Of a stretch of DNA of 64,000 nt, positions 9,122 through 63,189 are shown piece after piece. Origin of the DNA: Escherichia phage ECCR664; the sequence record OL631257.1; one strand, written 5' to 3'. The notes under the pieces are model-generated. The model did no database searches, was not told the DNA's origin, and was given only the letters and a program-made list of their open reading frames with translations. Position numbers and translations under genes: made by a program. Position 1 is the first letter of the stretch; each line of letters begins with the position of its first letter.

Positions 9122-10560
9122 TTAAAATTTTAACTCATTGGCTAAGCTATCTAGGTCAGCACGTGTTGCTTTGGCTTTACCTACGCGTTCCGTACGATTC
9201 ACCTCTGCCTGACGCATCTGAGCACCTGCGTTTTCATTTACTGTGTTAGGTGTGTTCATGCCTTCTTGCTCAATCTCAACCCATTTCTGATTGCCTTTAC
9301 GTACACCCATCAAGAACTTGTTCCACTTATTCTTATCACCATATCGTGATTTGATTTGTTTGATAAGTTGTTGTTCAGCTTGTGCAAGTTCTTCAGTTTC
9401 AATTACAGCCAACATGAAATCTGCCGTTGCTGGTAAACCTGCTGATTCTGCAATATCGCTCATGTTCATGTCTGAAGCATCCCATGCTGCACGTCCTACT
9501 TGAGCTGCAGTCCATAGAACTGTTTCAGATTCTACTGCTAATGCACGAAGTTCTTCTGCGATAGCTTTAACTAATGTGTAACTATTTTCAGTGTAAACTC
9601 TGATACGACAAGACCCACAAATACCTAAGTAATCGACTATAATTACAGACGGCACAAAGTTCTTCTTGAGTTTCAATTCATTAAGCAATGCACGGAATGT
9701 ATTAGCATTAGCTCCGCCAGTAGGATACTGTTTGACTACTAAACGTCCTAATGTGGATTTTGAACGCCATTTTTCCATCTTGGCTTTATATTCAGCATAA
9801 GATACGTTACCATCATCGATATCATCAAGTGATACGTCAAGCATGTTTGCATCTATACGCTTAGCACAAACTTCTTCAGCCATTTCCATGGAAATATAAA
9901 GAACATTATGTCCTGTTTGAAGATAATCTGCAGCAAGTGAACAAAGGCCTAAAGATTTACCAACGTTAACACCTGCCATTAAAACATTCAGTGTACCGGT
10001 TTCAGCACCACCTTTGGTGATTTTATTCAGAATGTTTAATTTGAACGGGACCTTACGTGCTTTATTTAGATAAGAAAGCCAGCGTGCTTCATAGTCTTCC
10101 ATCCAGTCATGACCAACATAACTATCAAACGAAATTGAAAGTGCTTGACGCATAATATCAGGAATAGCTCCTACGTCAGGCATTTTCTTGTTACGTTGTT
10201 CTGGAGGTAGTTCAGCATTAGACTGAATCTCAATGATTTTGGATGTAGCATTATACATCGCTTTTGCTGGACATATTTCTCAGTTTCTTTAACCAACCAT
10301 TCGTGGTCTTCAGGAGTGTCAGCCAATTTTTCAATTAGGTCTGAAGTTCCTTTATATTCGGCTTCAGTTAAAGAACTGTTATCTAAAGCCACCTTTAATG
10401 CATTGATAGATGGCATTGCATTATATTCGTTAACGTGGCTCTTTATAATTTTAAAGACATTTTTGCCGGTCCACGCTCAAAATACTCAGAATCCATATAA
10501 GGCCAGACCTTAGAAAAATAAGCCTGGTCGTATACGAGATGAGACAAAATAATTTCTACC
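9122..10560 (-). CDS. 41: replicative DNA helicase (DnaB-like), gene 41; two apparent frameshifts
   Basis: Fragments 9122..10258 (378 aa), 10171..10416 and 10417..10560 together match T4 gp41 almost residue-for-residue as recalled (e.g. PDVGAIPDIMRQALSISFDSYVGHDW, Walker A GVNVGKS). Confidence 0.9.
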
Positions 10561-10903: not shown

Positions 10904-12074
10904 TTATTCATCGAAATCTTCCATTTCGTCAAGGTCGTTTTCAATATCTGCTGCAGACGGAGCATCAGAAGCTTTAACCGGAACTTTAGTTGTTGCTTTG
11001 CAATTAATAAGGTCGTTAACAGCGTCATCAACTTCTTTAATAGAAGAGATAGCACCTAGTTTATATTTAGTTTCAATTGCATCTCGGAAAGGTTTGTGTT
11101 TAAACAACGGCCCCCAGAATTCTACGCAATCAGTAGCTTTAGCACGCCATGATTTCTCTTCACGAATCATTTCACCTGTTTCTTCGTCAAGGAATTCACG
11201 AGCATACCAACCAGCTTTAGGTTTAACCACAAAACCAATTTCAGTTGCCATTTCTAACAAGCCACTGAATGGGTCAATACCGCCATCAAAATTAACCGTG
11301 ATTGGGAAAGTAGATTTCTCTTTAACTGTACGAGATTTTTCTGCTTTCAACGTGAAGTCATAACCGGTCAATTCTGTACCTTCTTTAACCTGACGTTTAG
11401 AGATAAAAATACTGTGTTAGCAGAATAAAGAATACCTGTACCACCGCCCATAATCTCTTTAGGATATAGTCCGCCGATTTCCATTGCTGTATGGTTGATT
11501 GCAACACATGGAATATCTTTAATAGTCAGATACGGGGTTACAATACGGAAAAGAGATTTAAGTGCCTTAGCACGAGACATATCACCTACGACTTTCTCGT
11601 TCAATGCATCTTCGGTTTCTTTCTTAGATGCAGTGTTACCGATTGAATCGATAAAGATAATAACTTTATCACCGCGTTCAATCGCGTCAAGCTGATTAGT
11701 CATATCAACTTTAAGTTGTTCGACGGACTGAATTGGTGTATGAACTACACGGTCTAAATCAACACCCATTGAACGGAAGTAAGATTCTGAAGCACCGAAT
11801 TCTGAGTCATAGAACAAACAGATTGCATCTTTATATTTCTTCATATACGCTGCAACCATAGTTAGTCCAAACAATGTTTTAAAATGTTTAGAAGGTGCAG
11901 CAAAATAGTCAAGCCTGATTGCAATCCTGCATTCAGAGCACCACCTAGTGCAATATTCAACATCGGAATACGAGTAGGGACTTCATCACGATTATTAAAC
12001 AGCTTAGACTTAGTCAAGTCTGCAGTCATTTTAGAAGTAGAAGCTTTAATCAGACGAGATTTTAAATCAGACAT
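10904..12074 (-). CDS. uvsX: UvsX recombinase (RecA-like); two apparent frameshifts
   Basis: Three fragments (10904..11371, 11368..11874, 11862..12074) together give about 390 aa; C-terminal block FTLKAEKSRTVKEKS.FPITVNFDGGIDPFSGLLEMATEIGFVVKPK matches T4 UvsX as recalled. Confidence 0.9.
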
Positions 12075-18756: not shown

Positions 18757-21466
18757 TCAAAAATCGAACATATCGAACAGAGATGCTTTCTTCTCGTAAT
18801 CGAGTTTCGCTGCTGATGTGAATCCTTCAAGTGGTTTAATAAATGTCTTCTCAAGGAGAACCGTGTAGTCCATCCAATGAAGTACGTCGTCTTTAATTAA
18901 ATCTGTGATTTCAGTACCAGAAGGCCATGCGATACATTTATCACCGAATGGGTTTCCTTCACGTAAAGGCAGAACATATACTTTTTCACCTTCTACAACT
19001 TGTGGTGCATCAATATTACCTTTAATAGCCCGGTTATACGTCAGAATTCCACGAATATGGAACGGGCATTTGGGACCAGGGAATCCACCAACGTCATATT
19101 TAGCAATGTTATTCGCAGAAGATACCGACGCAATGCTAATATAATTCAATTGACGGAATTCTTTTTCAAACTCTTTAAAATATTCTTGTAATGATTCTTC
19201 ACCTTCTTGAAGCATACGACGAATACATTCTTTAAGAGCTTTCTGTACCGCTTTAGGAGTTGAAGATTTCTGTGTTTCGAGACCCATGATTTTGAGTTTA
19301 GGCTCAGCGTAACGAGTACCTTCCATATCCCACACGTTTAATGCATAACGTTTCTTACCAGTCCAGAATCCGCCAATACCTTTAGAACCGAGCGGAGGAC
19401 CAGCGATAGCTTCTCGGTCCATGAACATCAAATGTTGCTTATTATTCATGTATTCGCACATTTCACGGAAACCTCTATCAATAGCTGGTTCCATACGTTC
19501 ACGTGCAAACTTATCTAAGAAGTCTACCCAATGGTTGGTATCACGGAATTTAGATTCACCAACCTTATCAATAATTTTATCAGCAGATACGTAAATAGAG
19601 TCTGTATCACCATAAAGAACGAAAGCTTCACCTTCTGTACCACAAACTTCATTCAGATATTCATTAACTTTACGTTCAATCCACTGTAAAGCCATTTGAC
19701 CAAATGTTGTGATTGCAGTAGCATTACGCAAATCGTAATAACGGAACCAAACGTTGCCAAGTGCACCATAAAGTGAGTTGATAAGCAATTTACGGTTAAT
19801 TTGTGCAGTCATACCTGCAACTTCAGTACGTTGAGCTCTAAACAACATTTCATTAAGAGATTTAGCAGACAACTTTTTAATCTTTTCTTTAATCTCATCA
19901 GTGAAGTCGAAACGATAATCAACATCTAATGGTTCGTCAACAGAAAGATTAGGATTATGCAATGCCTCTTTAATTATTTCACCATTACGTTGAGCTGCAA
20001 GCATGTAACCTTTATGTTCTTTACGTTGATTAAAGACCTTAGTGATTTCAGTTGGAACTACACCGTCACGGTCTTTATAATACATCATGCCGTTAGGAGA
20101 GCAACTGTACACATCAGAAGGACGTTCAGCAACAGCGTTAATATAATCATGCAGTGGAGCTACTTTAAACGTTCCTGCTATTGTTTCTGGGCTAATATTC
20201 ACTTGGCGAATAATACTTGGATACAGAGATGTAAGGTCGAAACTCATTACATATTTGTATCGATTTGGAATAGGTTCCTTAACAAAAGCGCCAGGATAAG
20301 GTTGAACCGGGTGAGAACGACCTTGTGGAATCACCTTGTTTTGTTCTTTAAGGCTATTAAAAATAATAGCATCCCATGTTTTAATTGGGCTAAACACAGA
20401 TTGAATCTGTATCTTAGCATAATAACCCATGTCCAAACTCAAGTTGATGAACTGACGCTTAGCATCAATTTGCAATACACGATACACGTCGATAATGTTA
20501 TAAGAAATATATCGTTGGTGATTGCTTTCACGAAGCTTAGAAATAGGACCGTCATATTTCAGTTTACCGACATTCAATTCAAATTCTGAAATGTAATCCA
20601 GAGAATACGACGGTTGATTGGTAAAGAGAATTTTTGTAAAGGTCAATGTAATCAAGAACAGAGATACCGAACAATGTAATGATTTCACGAGAACCATACA
20701 TGTTTTCGATAACTTTAACACGAGTTTTACGATGTGGTGATAAACGTTTCGCAGTAGATTCGCCAAAAATATTTTTGATTCGGTTATACACATATGGAAT
20801 ATCAAATGACTCAACGTTCCATCCAGTCAAAATGACAGGAGTTTTCTGTTGCCAGAAGTTGAGATATTCCATCAACAATTCTTTTTCGTTATCGAACGGC
20901 ATATAAATGATTTTATCAATAATTTCGGATGGAACTTCATCACCACCTTGTTCTTGAAGCTTAGCTGCAATTTCGATAGACCATTCTTCTACATTACCAT
21001 ATGGAGAATTCAATAGATCAAATACGTAGAACCTGTCGTCAATTGAGTCATAATGGGTGATAGCATCAATCGGATGTTTTGCTTGTGACGGCTCAGGAAA
21101 CCCATCCGGAGATGTTACTTCGATGTCGAAGTTAGCCACACGAATTTTTGTATGGACGTATTTGATTTCATAGTTATAAGTGTCAGACAAATACGCTAAT
21201 TTGAAATCGTCCATGCCAAGTGCTTCAAGTCCGATATCTTCCATGCGTTTAATCCATTGGGAGGCATCACGCATATTAGCGAACAACTTACGAGTACATG
21301 GCTTACCGTAGATATCGAAATATTTCGTAGCCTGACTTTCCGGACAATGAGCAAACAGTGATGGTTTATATTCTACTTCACGAGTACGTTCACGGCCATT
21401 AGAATCGATGTAACGTTCAAAAATTGAATCACCAATCTGTTCAACCGTTAAGTAAAATTCTTTCAT
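18757..21466 (-). CDS. 43: DNA polymerase, gene 43 (family B); one apparent frameshift
   Basis: N-terminal 295-aa ORF (MKEFYLTVEQIGD...) and C-terminal ORF (YGDTDS, ...KKRYALNVWDMEG...) match T4 gp43 as recalled. Junction is a one-base loss in the T5 run at 20630..20634; restoring it gives ...LDYIDLYKKILFTNQPSYSL... Confidence 0.95.
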
Positions 21467-24918: not shown

Positions 24919-26603
24919 TTATGAAACAGTCATCACAGTAAATCGTCCAACTTTACTCATCTGAAGATGTTGTCCATAACGTTGAGGGTCATGGTCTCGA
25001 TGAGAGATAATAAACACATTAGTATTTTGTAAACTTCCAAGAATGGTATCTATAGCCTTAACAGCCTCAGAATCGACAGCCCCATCAAAACCTCATCAAG
25101 AATCAACGTGTTGATTTTAACACCAGAAACTTTTTCAGCAATATCTCGCCATGTAAACAACAATGCGATATCGATACGTGCCTTTTCACCTTGACTAAAT
25201 GAAGCATAACTAAAATCTTCACGACCACGTGATTTTATAGATTCATTGAATTCTTCGTCAATAGAAAACACATAATCAGCTTCCATGATTTTAAGGTAAT
25301 GGTTAATCTGCTTGTTGAACAGAGGCACATATTTTTAATGATAGCACCTTTAATACCAGAATCTTTTAACATATCTGTTATAATACCACGATGGTATTTT
25401 TCAAGAACGATATCCGATTTTGTTTTAATGATTTTATCAAGTTCTTTTGAAGCAAAGCTATCTCATCGGCATGGTCGATAAATTCCGCCGAGGCTTGTTC
25501 TATTGCAGCTTTAACTTTCTTAGCTTTATCAATAGTGGCAATCATTGCTTGTTTCTTGGTACGAATATCAGATGCAAGGTCCTGTTTAGTCTTAACATTA
25601 GCTCTATATTCGTCCACTAGGACACTCAGATTATCTCTGTGACAGGTAAGTTGCTCGAATGAGTGATTACATTCATGAAGCTTATCGGTAATCTTAGAGA
25701 CAATAGGATCACCCTGGTGCAACTGTGATGCACAAGTAGGACATGTGCCACCGTCATGATACATCTTAATAACTTTGTTATATGAGTCAATTTTAGATTT
25801 AATCAAGAATGCTTCTTGACCGATCTTGTTGAATGCCTCAGTAGGGTCTTCGTCAAGAACGATATTAAGTAGACGCTCGTTAGCTTCTTCAATTTCTGCT
25901 TTTAATGAACGAGCTTCTTTGGCTAGGTCGTCATACATATTCTGTAGACGCGCTACATTATCGCCAGATAATTTCTTTTGACGTTCGATATTCTCGTTAT
26001 AAATCTTAATTTGTTGGATAATACCATCTTTCTTGGCATCGAGAACTTGTCCCTGGGAATTAAGTTCTCGAACTTGAGACTTATTGATTTTATCCATTTC
26101 AGCGAGTGTTCCAACTTCTAATAAGTCTTCAACAAGCTTTCTGCGAGCAGGGGTGCTAAGAGCCATGAAAGGGGTATACCCTGCCGTCCCAAGCACAACG
26201 ATCTGTTTAAAAGACGCGTATGACATTCCGATGCTACGTTCAAATTCTTCTTGGAAGTCACGACTGCTGGCAGATTCATCAAGACGAACACCGTCAACGG
26301 AGATTTCGAAAATATTGGGCTTTTGGCCACGTTTAATGAAGTATTTTTATCATCGAATTCCATCCAAAGCTCAACTAAGAGCTCTTTCTTGTTCGTGCTA
26401 TTAATGATTTGTCCTTTCTTAACATCACGAAATGGTTTACCGAAAAGTCCGAAAGTAATGGCTTCTAACATCGTAGATTTACCACCGCCATTTTTACCAG
26501 TGATTAATGTCTTTTGGACTTTATCTAATTGGATATCGATAGGATTCCCACCTACCGACATGATATTTTGATAACGAACACGATTTAATTTAAATGATTT
26601 CAT
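24919..26603 (-). CDS. 46: recombination endonuclease subunit (Rad50/SbcC-like), gene 46; at least three apparent frameshifts
   Basis: Fragments 26118..26603 (Walker A GKNGGGKST), 25378..26226, 25050..25328 and 24919..25090 concatenate to about 561 aa matching T4 gp46 as recalled. Confidence 0.85.
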
Positions 26604-36751: not shown

Positions 36752-37108
36752 TTAACCCCGGAGTTTATTGAGCTCTTCATAATCAATCCAGGATTCTAGC
36801 CCTGACGGCAGGTCACATTCAATGTTCCACAGAAGCTCTTCAATGGCTTGCAGGCGATTATATTCTTCAACGGTAATGGTAACCATTGGTGCAACCGGTT
36901 CTGCCTTTTTAACCATCATATCGTTCATCAGGACGTAAAGGTCATCACGAACGACAGTGTCGTTCCAACCCCATGATTTGGCTTCGTAAGCTAATGATGA
37001 AGGGAGCACATTTAAAACTTCAATAATAGTTGGAGCATCAGGACCAAGTTCATTGGCACAAACTTCGTATACATCTTGGAAATCTTTAAGATTTAATGAA
37101 TATGTCAT
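36752..37108 (-). CDS. hypothetical acidic protein (118 aa)
   Basis: ORF only. Confidence 0.3.
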   Translation of the reverse strand: MTYSLNLKDFQDVYEVCANELGPDAPTIIEVLNVLPSSLAYEAKSWGWNDTVVRDDLYVLMNDMMVKKAEPVAPMVTITVEEYNRLQAIEELLWNIECDLPSGLESWIDYEELNKLRG

Positions 37109-37367
37109 TTAAAATATTCTCGTAGTTGGTCAAAGCCACCGATCGAAGTTCCATCAGGAGCAAACACTTGAGGCATAGTCAATCCGACTTGTGATTCACG
37201 TCCAAGCTTAACAAGAAGCTCAGCAATTTTCTCATCATCGAACACACCTTTTCTGGCATAACATTAATGAATTCAAATGGCTGTTTCTTAACAGTCAGCA
37301 GTCGTTTCGCATTGTCGCAATAAATGCATTTATGAATAGTAGAGTCGTACCCGTACACTTTAAACAT
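37107..37367 (-). CDS. nrdC: thioredoxin/glutaredoxin NrdC; apparent frameshift
   Basis: MFKVYGYDS.IHKC.YCDNAKRLLTVKKQPFEFIN.MPEK matches T4 NrdC as recalled; frame is lost after about 45 aa. Confidence 0.75.
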
Positions 37368-43572: not shown

Positions 43573-43580
43573 TATTTATA
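43573..43580 (-). promoter_or_regulatory. T4-type late promoter (TATAAATA)
   Basis: Plus tatttata about 29 nt upstream of the ATG at 43544. Confidence 0.5.
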
Positions 43581-43639
43581 GTAAGAATTATGATTTTCGA
43601 GATAGACTTGCTCAAGGAAATCATCCCAGAAACTCATAT

Positions 43640-44560
43640 CTACTTTTGTTGCATACCGTTCTTAGCGGCTTGTTCTGATGCTTGTTCAACTTGGTCAACG
43701 ATATCTTCTAGGAATTCTTGTACAGTTTTAAACGTATGTTTACCAAGCTTAACATCAAGAATAAATGGAGCATCCTGAAGCGGGTAAACCAGGTCACCGG
43801 TTTTGTAAATTTCCAATAATTGAAGTCCACCACGACATGCATGACTCAATGCTTTCCAGTCAATACCTTCGTTGGCTTCCGCCTTACGAGCACGTTCACC
43901 ATAGTTCTCTTCCAGTTTAACCAGGATGGCATTGAACTCTTTATTGGTTAACGTGTCTTGGAATTTACGGTCTAATAGATTATAGAATGTTTGCTTACCT
44001 GTTTTCTCGTTTTCGGTTTCAACCCATGAAGCAAATTCACCTACAGGCAGAACATTCTTCATATGTGATAAACGAATTACCGCACCATTATCAAAGTATT
44101 GTCCCCATTCATTAGAACGTTTAAGGGCTTGACGAAGAACAGCCAGTCGAGAACCCTTGACACCATATTTAGAAGCTTGCTTACGGACATACCCTAAATA
44201 AGATTTCATGTTAGTGGTATAGAAACGAGACCTGTTATCTTGAATATACTTCCATACATCAGGCAAATCAGATTTAACTACTAGACTTGGTGGGGTGTGA
44301 AGCATATCTAATGCGACGGTTTCACCATCTGCAGCTAGTTTAAAGAAATATTTGAGACTATACAACTCGTGGTCCACGTCGTCTTTTGTGTTCTTAGAAG
44401 CAGTGTTGTTAGTGTTCTTGCTCATGTGTTCTTTAACGTTACCGGTCAAGATATCACGAGCATGAGGGACATAAATTTCTTTAAAATCGACGTCAGATTC
44501 AGGAGTAGACGTTCCATAAAGGTGGCTACCAAAGTAGCCTTTCATAATTGTTTTCATCAT
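43640..44560 (-). CDS. Pol-beta-superfamily nucleotidyltransferase (ANT/MNT-like N-terminal domain plus helical C-terminal domain)
   Basis: 306 aa; KGYFGSHLYGTSTPESDVDFKEIYVP fits the G-S-x(9-13)-D-x-D signature; start overlaps the stop of the upstream membrane protein (ATGA). Confidence 0.55.
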   Translation of the reverse strand: MMKTIMKGYFGSHLYGTSTPESDVDFKEIYVPHARDILTGNVKEHMSKNTNNTASKNTKDDVDHELYSLKYFFKLAADGETVALDMLHTPPSLVVKSDLPDVWKYIQDNRSRFYTTNMKSYLGYVRKQASKYGVKGSRLAVLRQALKRSNEWGQYFDNGAVIRLSHMKNVLPVGEFASWVETENEKTGKQTFYNLLDRKFQDTLTNKEFNAILVKLEENYGERARKAEANEGIDWKALSHACRGGLQLLEIYKTGDLVYPLQDAPFILDVKLGKHTFKTVQEFLEDIVDQVEQASEQAAKNGMQQK

Positions 44561-46962: not shown

Positions 46963-46970
46963 TATTTATA
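46963..46970 (-). promoter_or_regulatory. T4-type late promoter (TATAAATA)
   Basis: Plus tatttata about 25 nt upstream of the ATG at 46938; overlaps the tk stop. Confidence 0.5.
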
Positions 46971-47545
46971 ACAACCCTGTCAAATCATTCCAATGCTTCC
47001 GGCATAATGACACGTATCTATCAGTATCACCAATTTCAATTTGACTGCCATCTGTAATTGGAAGTCCGTCTTCCGTGACTCTAGCTACCATTGTGGCCTT
47101 TTACCACAATGACAGACACCTTTAAGTTCAACAAGCTTATCGGCAATAGCCATTAATGCTTGAGAACCTTCAAATAGATTACCTTTAAAATCTGTTCGTA
47201 GTCCATATGCCATTACTGGCACATTGTATACGTCAACAATACGACTAAGTTGATACACCTTTTCAGTAGTTAAGAACTGAGCTTCGTCAACAAATACACA
47301 ATGAATATCCTTTGTGCTGCAGCCCATTTATAGAATTCAAAGATGTCCATGTCTTTTGTAATTATATTGGCATCCTGACGAATACCAATACGAGAGACTA
47401 TTTCACCTTTTGAATCACGAGTATCAATAGCCGGTTTAAGAACTAATACACCCATGCCACGTTCTTTATAGTTATGTGCGGCAGTAAGTAATGAAGCAGA
47501 CTTACCAGCATTCATAGCGGCATATGTAAAAATTAAACTAGCCAT
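46966..47545 (-). CDS. tk: thymidine kinase; two apparent frameshifts
   Basis: Walker [13 protein letters not shown]; [13 protein letters not shown]; CHCGK ... Zn ribbon. One junction verified as a one-base loss in an A-run (caaaggat versus expected caaaaggat). Confidence 0.85.
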
Positions 47546-49500: not shown

Positions 49501-49957
49501 CTAGATTTTAATCACTGCTTTAGAAGCTTTTCCTGGTAGTCGTTTACTGTTAATAATAGCCATTCTGCATTGAAGAGTCTTCATTTTGAATGCTGGATTT
49601 TCGCGACAGACTGTAAGTCCTAACCAAAGATTTCCGTCAGTTATTTCTAAACGGCCTGGGCGATATTCGACACCTTCGACAAAATCTTCATCAACATCTG
49701 GACGTGCCGGCATTGATAAAAATTCTGCAACTTCTTTAACATGATTTTTACTTTATGAAATAATTCAAAACGTAATTCTCATCTATTTCTCTCTGGATGG
49801 CACGATCTAAGAGATGTTGAGAATACTTGATATGAAAGCCTGGTAGTCCAAGAGACTTTGCAGCATCTTTTATACCGGCATTTATTTTGCGGAACTCCGT
49901 TTCAAAGATTCGACGGAGTTTATTACGGCGGATAAAAACGTCAGAATTGATAGTCAT
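49501..49957 (-). CDS. regB: endoribonuclease RegB; apparent frameshift
   Basis: N fragment MTIN..VFIRRNKLRR.FE.EFR.IN ... KYSQHLLDRAIQREIDE and C fragment RPD.DEDF.GVEYRPGRLEITDGNLWLG.TVC ... CRMAIINS.RLPGKASKAVIK match T4 RegB as recalled. Confidence 0.8.
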
Positions 49958-55720: not shown

Positions 55721-55754
55721 ATTATTTTCCTCGACATTCTTTAATGAAATTTTC

Positions 55755-56026
55755 TAGATTGGTAGATTCAATAGCTTTTTACGAGCTTCTGAGTGTTCTT
55801 CTTCTGACAATTTACGTTTATAATTGACCCAGACATTATGGTCGAAACCAGTCGTGGCATATAATAACAATGCTCCAACGAATAGCAAAAACGGCGATAA
55901 GAATACAAAACCAGGAACACCATCCATATCGTAAGCCTTTTGTAATACTGCAACAGAAAGAGTTACGTAAAAGGTGATGCAAGTATTGTTAAAAGACCAA
56001 TTCGGTTGGTTTCTGTTAATTTCATA
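55755..56026 (-). CDS. small membrane protein; apparent frameshift
   Basis: ATG at 56026 (MKLTETNRIGLLTILAS) downstream of a promoter; joins ORF 55768..55953. Confidence 0.3.
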
Positions 56027-56364: not shown

Positions 56365-56901
56365 TTATTTGAAAGGTTTTACCATATGGAAATTTTGTTT
56401 GAAACGTTTTACGTAATCGTCATGTCCTAAGCTTTGGTACATACTTACTACTTTGCTGTAGTTTTCCCAGGCGTATTCACGGAACCAACCGGAGGTGATG
56501 CTTGTGCAGACTTTTTCTAATGCCATCATGAAACTGGCTTCAGGGTTAATTTCAAAGTTATTAGGAATCTGAGAACGTTCTAATGCTAGTACACATGATT
56601 CTTCGTATACACCGGCCAATTTGACCATTTCTGGTAATGATTCGAACTTCTCGCGTGAGGTCATGACTTCAGAACCATCTTTCATGTAAAACGTATAAGC
56701 AGGGCGGTCTGTTAGTGCAATGGCTTCGTGAATAGTATCATGGTCATATGTATAGATGTCATCTTTAAAGAATGCGCTTTTAGAAGTGTCAAGAACCGGG
56801 TGAGCATAGTTCAAGGTTTCTTTCTGGCGTTTCAGCATAATTTCAGTAAGTTCATCGTTCAGTGTAACACCTTTACCACGAAGATACTGAATATGGTTCA
56901 T
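56365..56901 (-). CDS. hypothetical protein, possibly the C-terminal domain of the upstream nucleotidyltransferase
   Basis: 178 aa ORF starting 5 nt after the stop of 56907..57320 in another frame. Confidence 0.35.
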   Translation of the reverse strand: MNHIQYLRGKGVTLNDELTEIMLKRQKETLNYAHPVLDTSKSAFFKDDIYTYDHDTIHEAIALTDRPAYTFYMKDGSEVMTSREKFESLPEMVKLAGVYEESCVLALERSQIPNNFEINPEASFMMALEKVCTSITSGWFREYAWENYSKVVSMYQSLGHDDYVKRFKQNFHMVKPFK

Positions 56902-56906
56902 AGTCT

Positions 56907-57320
56907 TTAAAAGAATGGATTATTTTTCTTGAAACGATGGGACATCTTAATTGCAAGACACATCTCAGGAGTTGCCCAGTAAAACCCGTTCAAACGGTCT
57001 TTAGTCAAATTTTTCTTGGCATATTTTAAAAGGTCATAAGAAGACGTGAAATCTTCAGGAGTGAGTTCACCGACTAATTCACGGACATTAGTGATTGCCG
57101 GAACAATATATGCTTCAAAATGAGTTTCGCGTCCATTATGGAAGCATTTGAAAACTTGGACATCAGGGTTATCTTGGTGGACATATACACCCATCATTTG
57201 ATTTTTGAATGCATTCCAAGAACCTTGGTCTGCAATAAAGTCCCAGTCACTATTTTTGATAGCGTTAGAATCAATAAGTCCGTGATAGTGAAGTGCACGA
57301 GAACCAATAACTAACATCAT
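56907..57320 (-). CDS. Pol-beta-superfamily nucleotidyltransferase-fold protein
   Basis: 137 aa; VIGSRALHYHGLIDSNAIKNSDWDFIAD fits G-S-x(n)-D-x-D. Confidence 0.45.
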   Translation of the reverse strand: MMLVIGSRALHYHGLIDSNAIKNSDWDFIADQGSWNAFKNQMMGVYVHQDNPDVQVFKCFHNGRETHFEAYIVPAITNVRELVGELTPEDFTSSYDLLKYAKKNLTKDRLNGFYWATPEMCLAIKMSHRFKKNNPFF

Positions 57321-57344
57321 AATATTTTCCTCGGATTAATTAAC

Positions 57345-57595
57345 TTAAATTTCGCGACATGCGATATTATATTCATCCCAGAGGTCGTCATGTGAAGCCT
57401 CTACCAATGGAACGATTGTACCGTTTATGTCTTCATTATAAGGACAAATTGTACAGTGCGCATCTTCGAATCGGATGCCTTTGTGTTCAGATTTTTATAA
57501 CGCATATCGAATATCTTTGCAAACTTTTCACGAGTAATGGTTTTAGCAACCACTTTAGTTCCGATACTTTCGTAATAAATCATTGTGGACTCCAT
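57345..57595 (-). CDS. small hypothetical protein; apparent frameshift
   Basis: ATG at 57595 (MESTMIYYESIGTKVVAK) downstream of a promoter. Confidence 0.3.
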
Positions 57596-57611: not shown

Positions 57612-57641
57612 ACTATAACATAGCCCTATCTTGTTGTAAAC
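57612..57641 (-). promoter_or_regulatory. T4 early-type promoter
   Basis: Minus strand GTTTAC - 17 nt - TTATAGT with palindrome ATAGGGCT/AGTCCTAT. Confidence 0.5.
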
Positions 57642-62369: not shown

Positions 62370-62665
62370 ATACCTTGTCGGGGTTTCCACCTACTAAGGC
62401 AAGTGTTTGTACGAAACGCCGGGATTCGAACCCGGTTATTAAGCAGTTGACGCTACTCAATATTTTTAAAGGCCATATCTCGACCATATCCGAACGTTCC
62501 GTCAAAAACGCTACTCGGCTTACGGCAAAGATATTTCCTCGAATCGATAATTCTGTGCGCCGTTTCTGCTGTGATGTAAGGGGATATTAACGAATCATAA
62601 AGATTTATTAAGACCAGTCCTTACTCAGGGAACATCAGTCCGACGACTTGCCGGTAGCGACCCGG
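62370..62665 (-). ncRNA. candidate stable small RNA(s) with tRNA-like 3' T-arm (T4 rnaC/rnaD position)
   Basis: About 290 nt with no credible ORF, between a tRNA-adjacent ORF and the terminator; 3' part contains CCGGGTTCGAATCCCGG (T-stem/loop) but no complete cloverleaf could be drawn. Confidence 0.35.
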
Positions 62666-63032: not shown

Positions 63033-63109
<77 letters not shown>

Positions 63110-63115
63110 AATATA

Positions 63116-63189
63116 TGACCCAGACCAGATTCGAACTGGTAACCTTTCCCTTATGAGGGGACTGCTGCTAACCATTGAGCTACAGGGCC
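63116..63189 (-). tRNA. tRNA with CAT anticodon (Ile2/Met-type); irregular D-arm
   Basis: GGCCCTGTAGCTCAATGGTTAGCAGCAGTCCCCTCATAAGGGAAAGGTTACCAGTTCGAATCTGGTCTGGGTCA: T-arm ACCAG-TTCGAAT-CTGGT and anticodon loop CTCATAA are clear; D-stem 3' strand reads GCAG instead of GAGC and the acceptor has one mismatch, so possibly a sequence error or a degenerate gene. Confidence 0.55.

Follow-up and report, generated by a model that had tools for sequence, protein, structure and literature searches.

At positions 56365..57320 of the window, which is the whole stretch of 64,000 nucleotides of Escherichia phage ECCR664 analyzed here (record OL631257.1), two open reading frames lie end to end, and the question is whether they are two genes or one gene in pieces. 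An earlier note, made from the letters alone, had described an ORF with a G-S-x(n)-D-x-D motif at 56907..57320 (ORF1), followed in another frame, 5 nt past its stop, by an ORF at 56365..56901 (ORF2). It proposed that ORF2 might be the helical C-terminal domain of the same nucleotidyltransferase (NTase), cut off by an indel, or else a partner protein. The description of the two frames is accurate. Both are on the minus strand, ORF2 begins 5 nt past the TAA of ORF1 in the -1 frame, and the ORF1 N-terminus reads MMLVIGSRAL...NSDWDFIA, which is the G-S...D-x-D pattern. We conclude with high confidence that ORF1 and ORF2 belong to one gene, which is the Mosigvirus orthologue of RB69ORF134c, intact in the real phage and mis-assembled in this record. 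The features of the locus are as follows.

56365..57320, minus strand: whole gene, orthologue of RB69ORF134c / JS09_047, 956 nt (957 nt in relatives)
56907..57320, minus strand: ORF1, 137 aa, residues 1-137 of the full protein, then a premature TAA from the frameshift
56365..56901, minus strand: ORF2, 178 aa, residues 141-318 of the full protein
57329..57332, minus strand: Shine-Dalgarno GAGG, 8 nt upstream of the gene's ATG, read from the sequence
57018..57317, minus strand: DUF7277 region, Pol-beta-type NTase lobe with G6-S7, D25-x-D27, and E69
56407..56963, minus strand: DUF7275 region, conserved helical lobe, residues 120-305 of the restored protein, interrupted by the frameshift
56909..56912, minus strand: lesion, a run of four Ts (AAAA on the plus strand) that is a run of five in all relatives, from the alignment
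57612..57640, minus strand: promoter-like site TTTACA-17-TATAGT with TG, a consensus match only, upstream of the RB69ORF135c orthologue and the ORF1/ORF2 gene

One protein of a catalogued family

ORF1 matches Pfam DUF7277 (PF23942) over residues 2-101 with 99 bits (gathering cut-off, 27; E = 2.5e-28), and ORF2 matches DUF7275 (PF23940) with 230.8 bits (cut-off, 27; E = 1.6e-68). The ORF2 match covers positions 22-188 of the 188 in the profile, so the N-terminus of the domain is truncated. Both ORFs match a single family of 318 positions, phrog_2141, at 1-133 and 137-316, respectively. Many Mosigvirus genomes share the region at 95-97% identity, and in JN02, TU01, LF82-41, JS09, and RB69 the interval is a single 957-nt coding sequence for 318 aa, RB69ORF134c. 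In the intact protein (cluster representative P0001), DUF7275 occupies residues 120-305, so the break at 137/138 sits 18 residues inside the domain, and it parts the invariant K125, S127, and H128 at the end of ORF1 from H194, D195, H198, E240, E241, E248, and R249. Of the two options in the earlier note, ORF2 as the rest of the same protein is the right one, but the split does not fall at the boundary of a C-terminal domain.

Of 2303 homologues we looked at the best 120, and nearly every one has both domains, at a length of ~300-320 aa. Among the best 150 of the 1549 clusters formed at 50% identity, almost every one is ~280-350 aa long and matches the profile in one stretch. Remote homologues in Gordonia, Arthrobacter, Vibrio, and Acinetobacter phages also carry both parts in one chain. 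The ECCR664 gene has DUF7277-DUF7275 in two frames as written and in a single 318-aa chain, within the family's range of ~255-350 aa, after one T is restored. The only alternative architecture seen among the homologues examined is P0053 (308 aa), in which a DUF1190 (PF06693) segment stands in place of the NTase lobe before a complete DUF7275.

The gene is not new, being a conserved hypothetical of the catalogued DUF7277+DUF7275 family, phrog_2141. RB69ORF134c (AAP76036.1), JS09_047, and the other Mosigvirus orthologues lie at the same position with 96-99% protein identity once the base is restored, and the sole difference of the ECCR664 copy from them is the missing T of the five-T run. Members of the family, in ~1,500 clusters at 50% identity, occur widely in large lytic phages, among them T4-like, rV5-like, Otagovirus, jumbo, and actinobacterial ones. 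Our literature search for DUF7275, DUF7277, phrog_2141, RB69ORF134c, and the protein accessions found no paper.

The gene has its place in the early region, which is variable, with the tRNA cluster on one side and the lysozyme gene e on the other; as in relatives, its immediate neighbors are the orthologues of RB69ORF133c and RB69ORF135c. Conserved neighbors or operon partners were found neither in the ESCO5, phiPsa347, and Kimel loci nor across lineages. In actinophages, tRNA genes surround two of the homologues, Smoothie gp16 and Atuin gp147, and the tRNAs of the window are ~5 kb from the ORF1/ORF2 gene. We dropped a link to tRNA genes, since a tRNA lies within 10 kb at 5 of 52 diverse IMG/VR loci (a raw count with no matched background) and enrichment is not evident. 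ARAGORN calls a 94-nt "tRNA-Stop (anticodon tta)" at 62409..62502 (minus strand), which scores below gathering with the Rfam tRNA model. Its near-identical JS09 counterpart, one T longer, gets no ARAGORN call. The segment contains a perfect T-arm-like GGGTTCGAATCCCGG and is probably a tRNA-like remnant beside the real tRNA-Arg and tRNA-Met genes (63033..63189).

One missing T among many homopolymer contractions

Alignment with JN02, TU01, and LF82-41 shows that one T of a five-T run is missing in the window (CCATTCTTTTTAAAG has become CCATTCTTTTAAAG). The relatives read CCA TTC TTT TTA AAG ACT ATG (P-F-F-L-K-T-M) at this junction, where the window reads CCATTCTTTTAAAG. With the T put back, an uninterrupted 318-aa ORF results, identical to P0001 at 313 of 318 residues. 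With no further degenerative changes, the restored protein shows 98% identity to its relatives. When the 86-nt junction was searched against the phage collection, all 147 matching Mosigvirus records did so below 100% identity, with 86 query bases against 87 record bases in the best matches listed, and none of the 147 shares the one-base deletion. The exact 137-aa and 178-aa products have no record in the gene-position index. In IMG/VR the four-T junction has no exact match and the five-T junction has one, a weak control given the few Mosigvirus contigs there.

The same kind of lesion recurs throughout the window. We translated the annotated genes of JS09, searched them against the window, and compared the two sequences at the DNA level, where there are 138 gap events, 121 of them of a single base. 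Of these 121, the window is the shorter sequence in 111, and 91 fall in homopolymers of 5-6 bases, including the event at 56909 (run length, 5). Six-base homopolymers number 9 in the window versus 58 in the corresponding stretch of JS09. RB69 covers part of the window, with 81 of the deletions, and 69 of these are also seen against RB69, so those 69 are specific to the window. The control comparison of RB69 with JS09 over 44.8 kb has only 2 single-base gaps in runs of 5-6 and no such directional bias.

Many genes are broken by frameshifts. In the right half of the window about one-third of the genes are spread over two or three frames, among them tk (three frames; 46969-47545), regB (49504-49957), denV, nrdC (37108-37367), nrdC.3, nrdC.5, nrdC.8, nrdC.11, and e.5. 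Frameshifted genes of the left half include those for DNA polymerase gp43 (two frames; ~20633-20769), helicase gp41 (three; ~10264-10467), gp46 (five; 24922-26603), and UvsX (three; 10907-12074), as well as late sigma factor gp55, clamp-loader gp62, NrdD, and NrdG. A viable T4-type phage could not bear all these breaks in essential genes, and we therefore read the deletions as artefact. That assemblies split phage genes by erroneous homopolymer frameshifts is documented, in one case with a DNA polymerase cut into three annotations (PMC10438801). The deletion in the five-T run is thus almost certainly a sequencing or assembly artefact, and from the comparison with relatives we would predict five Ts in the phage. 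Of the suggestion that an indel had cut off a helical C-terminal domain, the one-base event and the common origin of the two parts stand, but the indel belongs to the under-calling of homopolymers across the window and not to biology.

The immediate neighbors are broken too. The orthologues of RB69ORF135c (57348..57583, minus strand) and RB69ORF133c (55725..56025, minus strand) likewise extend over two or three frames, and the causes include a one-base deletion in a run of six Ts at ~57492 and a 2-nt insertion at ~56041. The window as a whole should carry a quality flag, and findings of split genes, pseudogenes, or frameshifts in it should be presumed artefactual pending a check of the reads.

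Other explanations of the split

The deletion could be real in the isolate, which would leave either a recent pseudogene or two fragments made by termination-reinitiation across TAA, 5 nt, and ATG. The gene is accessory, its surroundings being a variable region of small hypothetical early genes, so that its loss would be tolerable; the ORF1 stop and the ORF2 ATG are near enough for coupling, and ORF2 alone is predicted to fold confidently. We nevertheless regard a real mutation as improbable. The lesion looks exactly like ~90 others specific to the window, in which a run of 5-6 bases has contracted, often within an essential gene; none of the 147 relatives has it, and the reading frame on either side shows no further decay. 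No Shine-Dalgarno sequence and nothing like the GAGG of ORF1 precedes the ORF2 ATG, and the break splits the invariant residues of a single domain.

The partner-protein alternative of the earlier note, that is, two independent genes for an NTase and a separate helical protein in a toxin/antitoxin-like or two-subunit system, did not hold up, and the chance we leave it is negligible. It takes the two ORFs of the sequence as written at face value, and the MenT-type NTases, which are closest in fold, do work with partner proteins (PMC7450476). Every homologue examined, however, has both domains in a single chain. ORF2 moreover starts 21 positions into the DUF7275 profile, the missing part, including K125, S127, and H128, is encoded by the end of ORF1, and the apparent start of ORF2 is an internal Met141 that is nearly invariant across the family. 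No more credible is programmed recoding, in which a -1 ribosomal frameshift or transcriptional slippage would join the two frames where they overlap at the T run beside the stop codon. The site, CCA TTC TTT TAA, is without an X XXY YYZ slippery heptamer, a tRNA-Phe slipped one base back from UUU would meet CUU, and polymerase slippage would need a run much longer than four. All 147 relatives, besides, encode the protein in one frame, so there is no signal to conserve. A single gene with one T lost in assembly remains the reading that we carry forward, and what follows concerns the restored protein.

A two-lobe protein of nucleotidyltransferase fold and its relation to known enzymes

AlphaFold2, given an alignment of 47 sequences, models P0001 confidently (pLDDT, 91.5; pTM, 0.85) as an alpha/beta lobe at the N-terminus and, after it, a long helical lobe. 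G6, S7, D25, D27, and E69 are at least 90% conserved among 47 long homologues, which bears out the motif reported for ORF1, and E69 is located in the strand formed by residues 64-73. The pattern hG[GS]...[DE]h[DE]h is present as V-I-G6-S7...D25-W-D27-F, and G6, S7, D25, and D27 are invariant in the distant homologue set too. Together the five residues constitute motifs I and II of the Pol-beta superfamily in the description given of the DUF1814 toxins (PMC7450476). The P0001 fold has three-dimensional similarity to solved NTases, the closest being MenT toxins and antibiotic adenylyltransferases. We conclude that the protein has an NTase fold with an intact catalytic signature in a single-chain, two-lobe architecture.

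At the sequence level there was no match to any characterized NTase family. The Pfam scan returned only DUF7277 and DUF7275 (to E = 1 for the ORFs and to E = 0.1 for P0001), NCBIfam gave only a subthreshold HisJ match (17.9 bits against a cut-off of 90.2), PADLOC gave no match, and profile searches of the PDB gave nothing significant (best E, 0.14).

The C-terminal lobe is conserved beyond the N-terminal one, and K125, S127, H128, H194, D195, H198, E240, E241, E248, and R249 are invariant even with actinophage and Vibrio-phage members included. This lobe has no significant structural neighbor. H128, H194-D195, and H198 gave the idea of an HD-domain phosphohydrolase, and we rejected it, as the lobe matches neither the HD fold nor the HD profile. 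Short homologues of 255-263 aa keep GS...DxD and the whole DUF7275 lobe and do not have the beta-segment that carries E69. They are Gordonia phage Smoothie gp16 (L010, 3809-4597), Vibrio phage K470 (L011, 3818-4600), and Arthrobacter phage Atuin gp147 (L012, 3851-4615). Such members hint that the two lobes jointly form one active site, and given them, there may be more to the active site than the classical three carboxylates. A joint active site would be a further reason why the ORF1 and ORF2 fragments would not work independently.

In the mechanism that we propose, an early-type transcription unit would give rise to a single 318-aa two-lobe protein. G6-S7 would bind the triphosphate, D25, D27, and E69 would be the carboxylates in two-metal catalysis, and the helical lobe would contribute acceptor binding and part of the active site. 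Fold and motifs lead us to favor, without great confidence, a metal-dependent transfer of a nucleoside monophosphate from a nucleoside triphosphate to a hydroxyl acceptor held by the helical lobe. Judged from the closest structures, an RNA 3' end or a small molecule would be the most plausible acceptor, and naming the RNA or tRNA 3' end in particular, by analogy with MenT, is a guess that is rather unlikely to be right. We would likewise put forward only as a doubtful speculation that DUF7277-DUF7275 proteins are an uncharacterized phage NTase class with a joint active site, to which a minimal lobe with GS/DxD and a new helical lobe rich in H, D, and E would both contribute. Such an enzyme might serve takeover or counter-defense, with RNA or tRNA 3' ends or a host nucleotide signal as its target. 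The window adds nothing to what is known of the family; the family itself is a reasonable biochemical target.

Among the closest structures are MenT1, MenT3, and MenT4 of M. tuberculosis (DUF1814, AbiEii-type; 8an4, 6j7n, and 6y56), at 8-11% sequence identity. The MenT toxins are tRNA 3'-end NTases and host toxins, whereas the ECCR664 protein is encoded by a phage in its early region and has a C-terminal lobe unmatched by them. Motifs III and IV of MenT3 are K189 and D211 in its C-terminal part (PMC7450476). At the level of sequence, the phage family has an invariant K125 after the core and invariant acidic residues D195, E240, E241, and E248 as possible counterparts. We tried and rejected membership in DUF1814/AbiEii/MenT. 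The profile was not matched in the Pfam scans, PADLOC did not match, and the Phapecoctavirus, Otagovirus, Lazarusvirus, and actinophage loci have no adjacent conserved antitoxin-like gene. Judging from these profile and locus comparisons, we would not class the protein with DUF1814/MenT.

The small-molecule adenylyltransferases ANT(2'')-Ia (4xje) and LnuA (4wh5) do not have the large conserved DUF7275 lobe, and nothing points to a role in antibiotic resistance in a lytic phage. Closer to home is the T4 NrdC.11 family (Pfam RlaP, PF10127), likewise a Pol-beta-superfamily NTase of the T4-like early region. Its orthologue at 43575..44557 (minus strand) is the first NTase of the window. The JS09 protein matches RlaP, "RNA repair pathway DNA polymerase beta family," with E = 7.7e-13, and the window copy is frameshifted near its C-terminus at ~43646. 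The earlier note had called the ORF1/ORF2 gene a second, unrelated NTase; the two genes have no detectable sequence similarity, belong to different Pfam families, and have different C-terminal parts.
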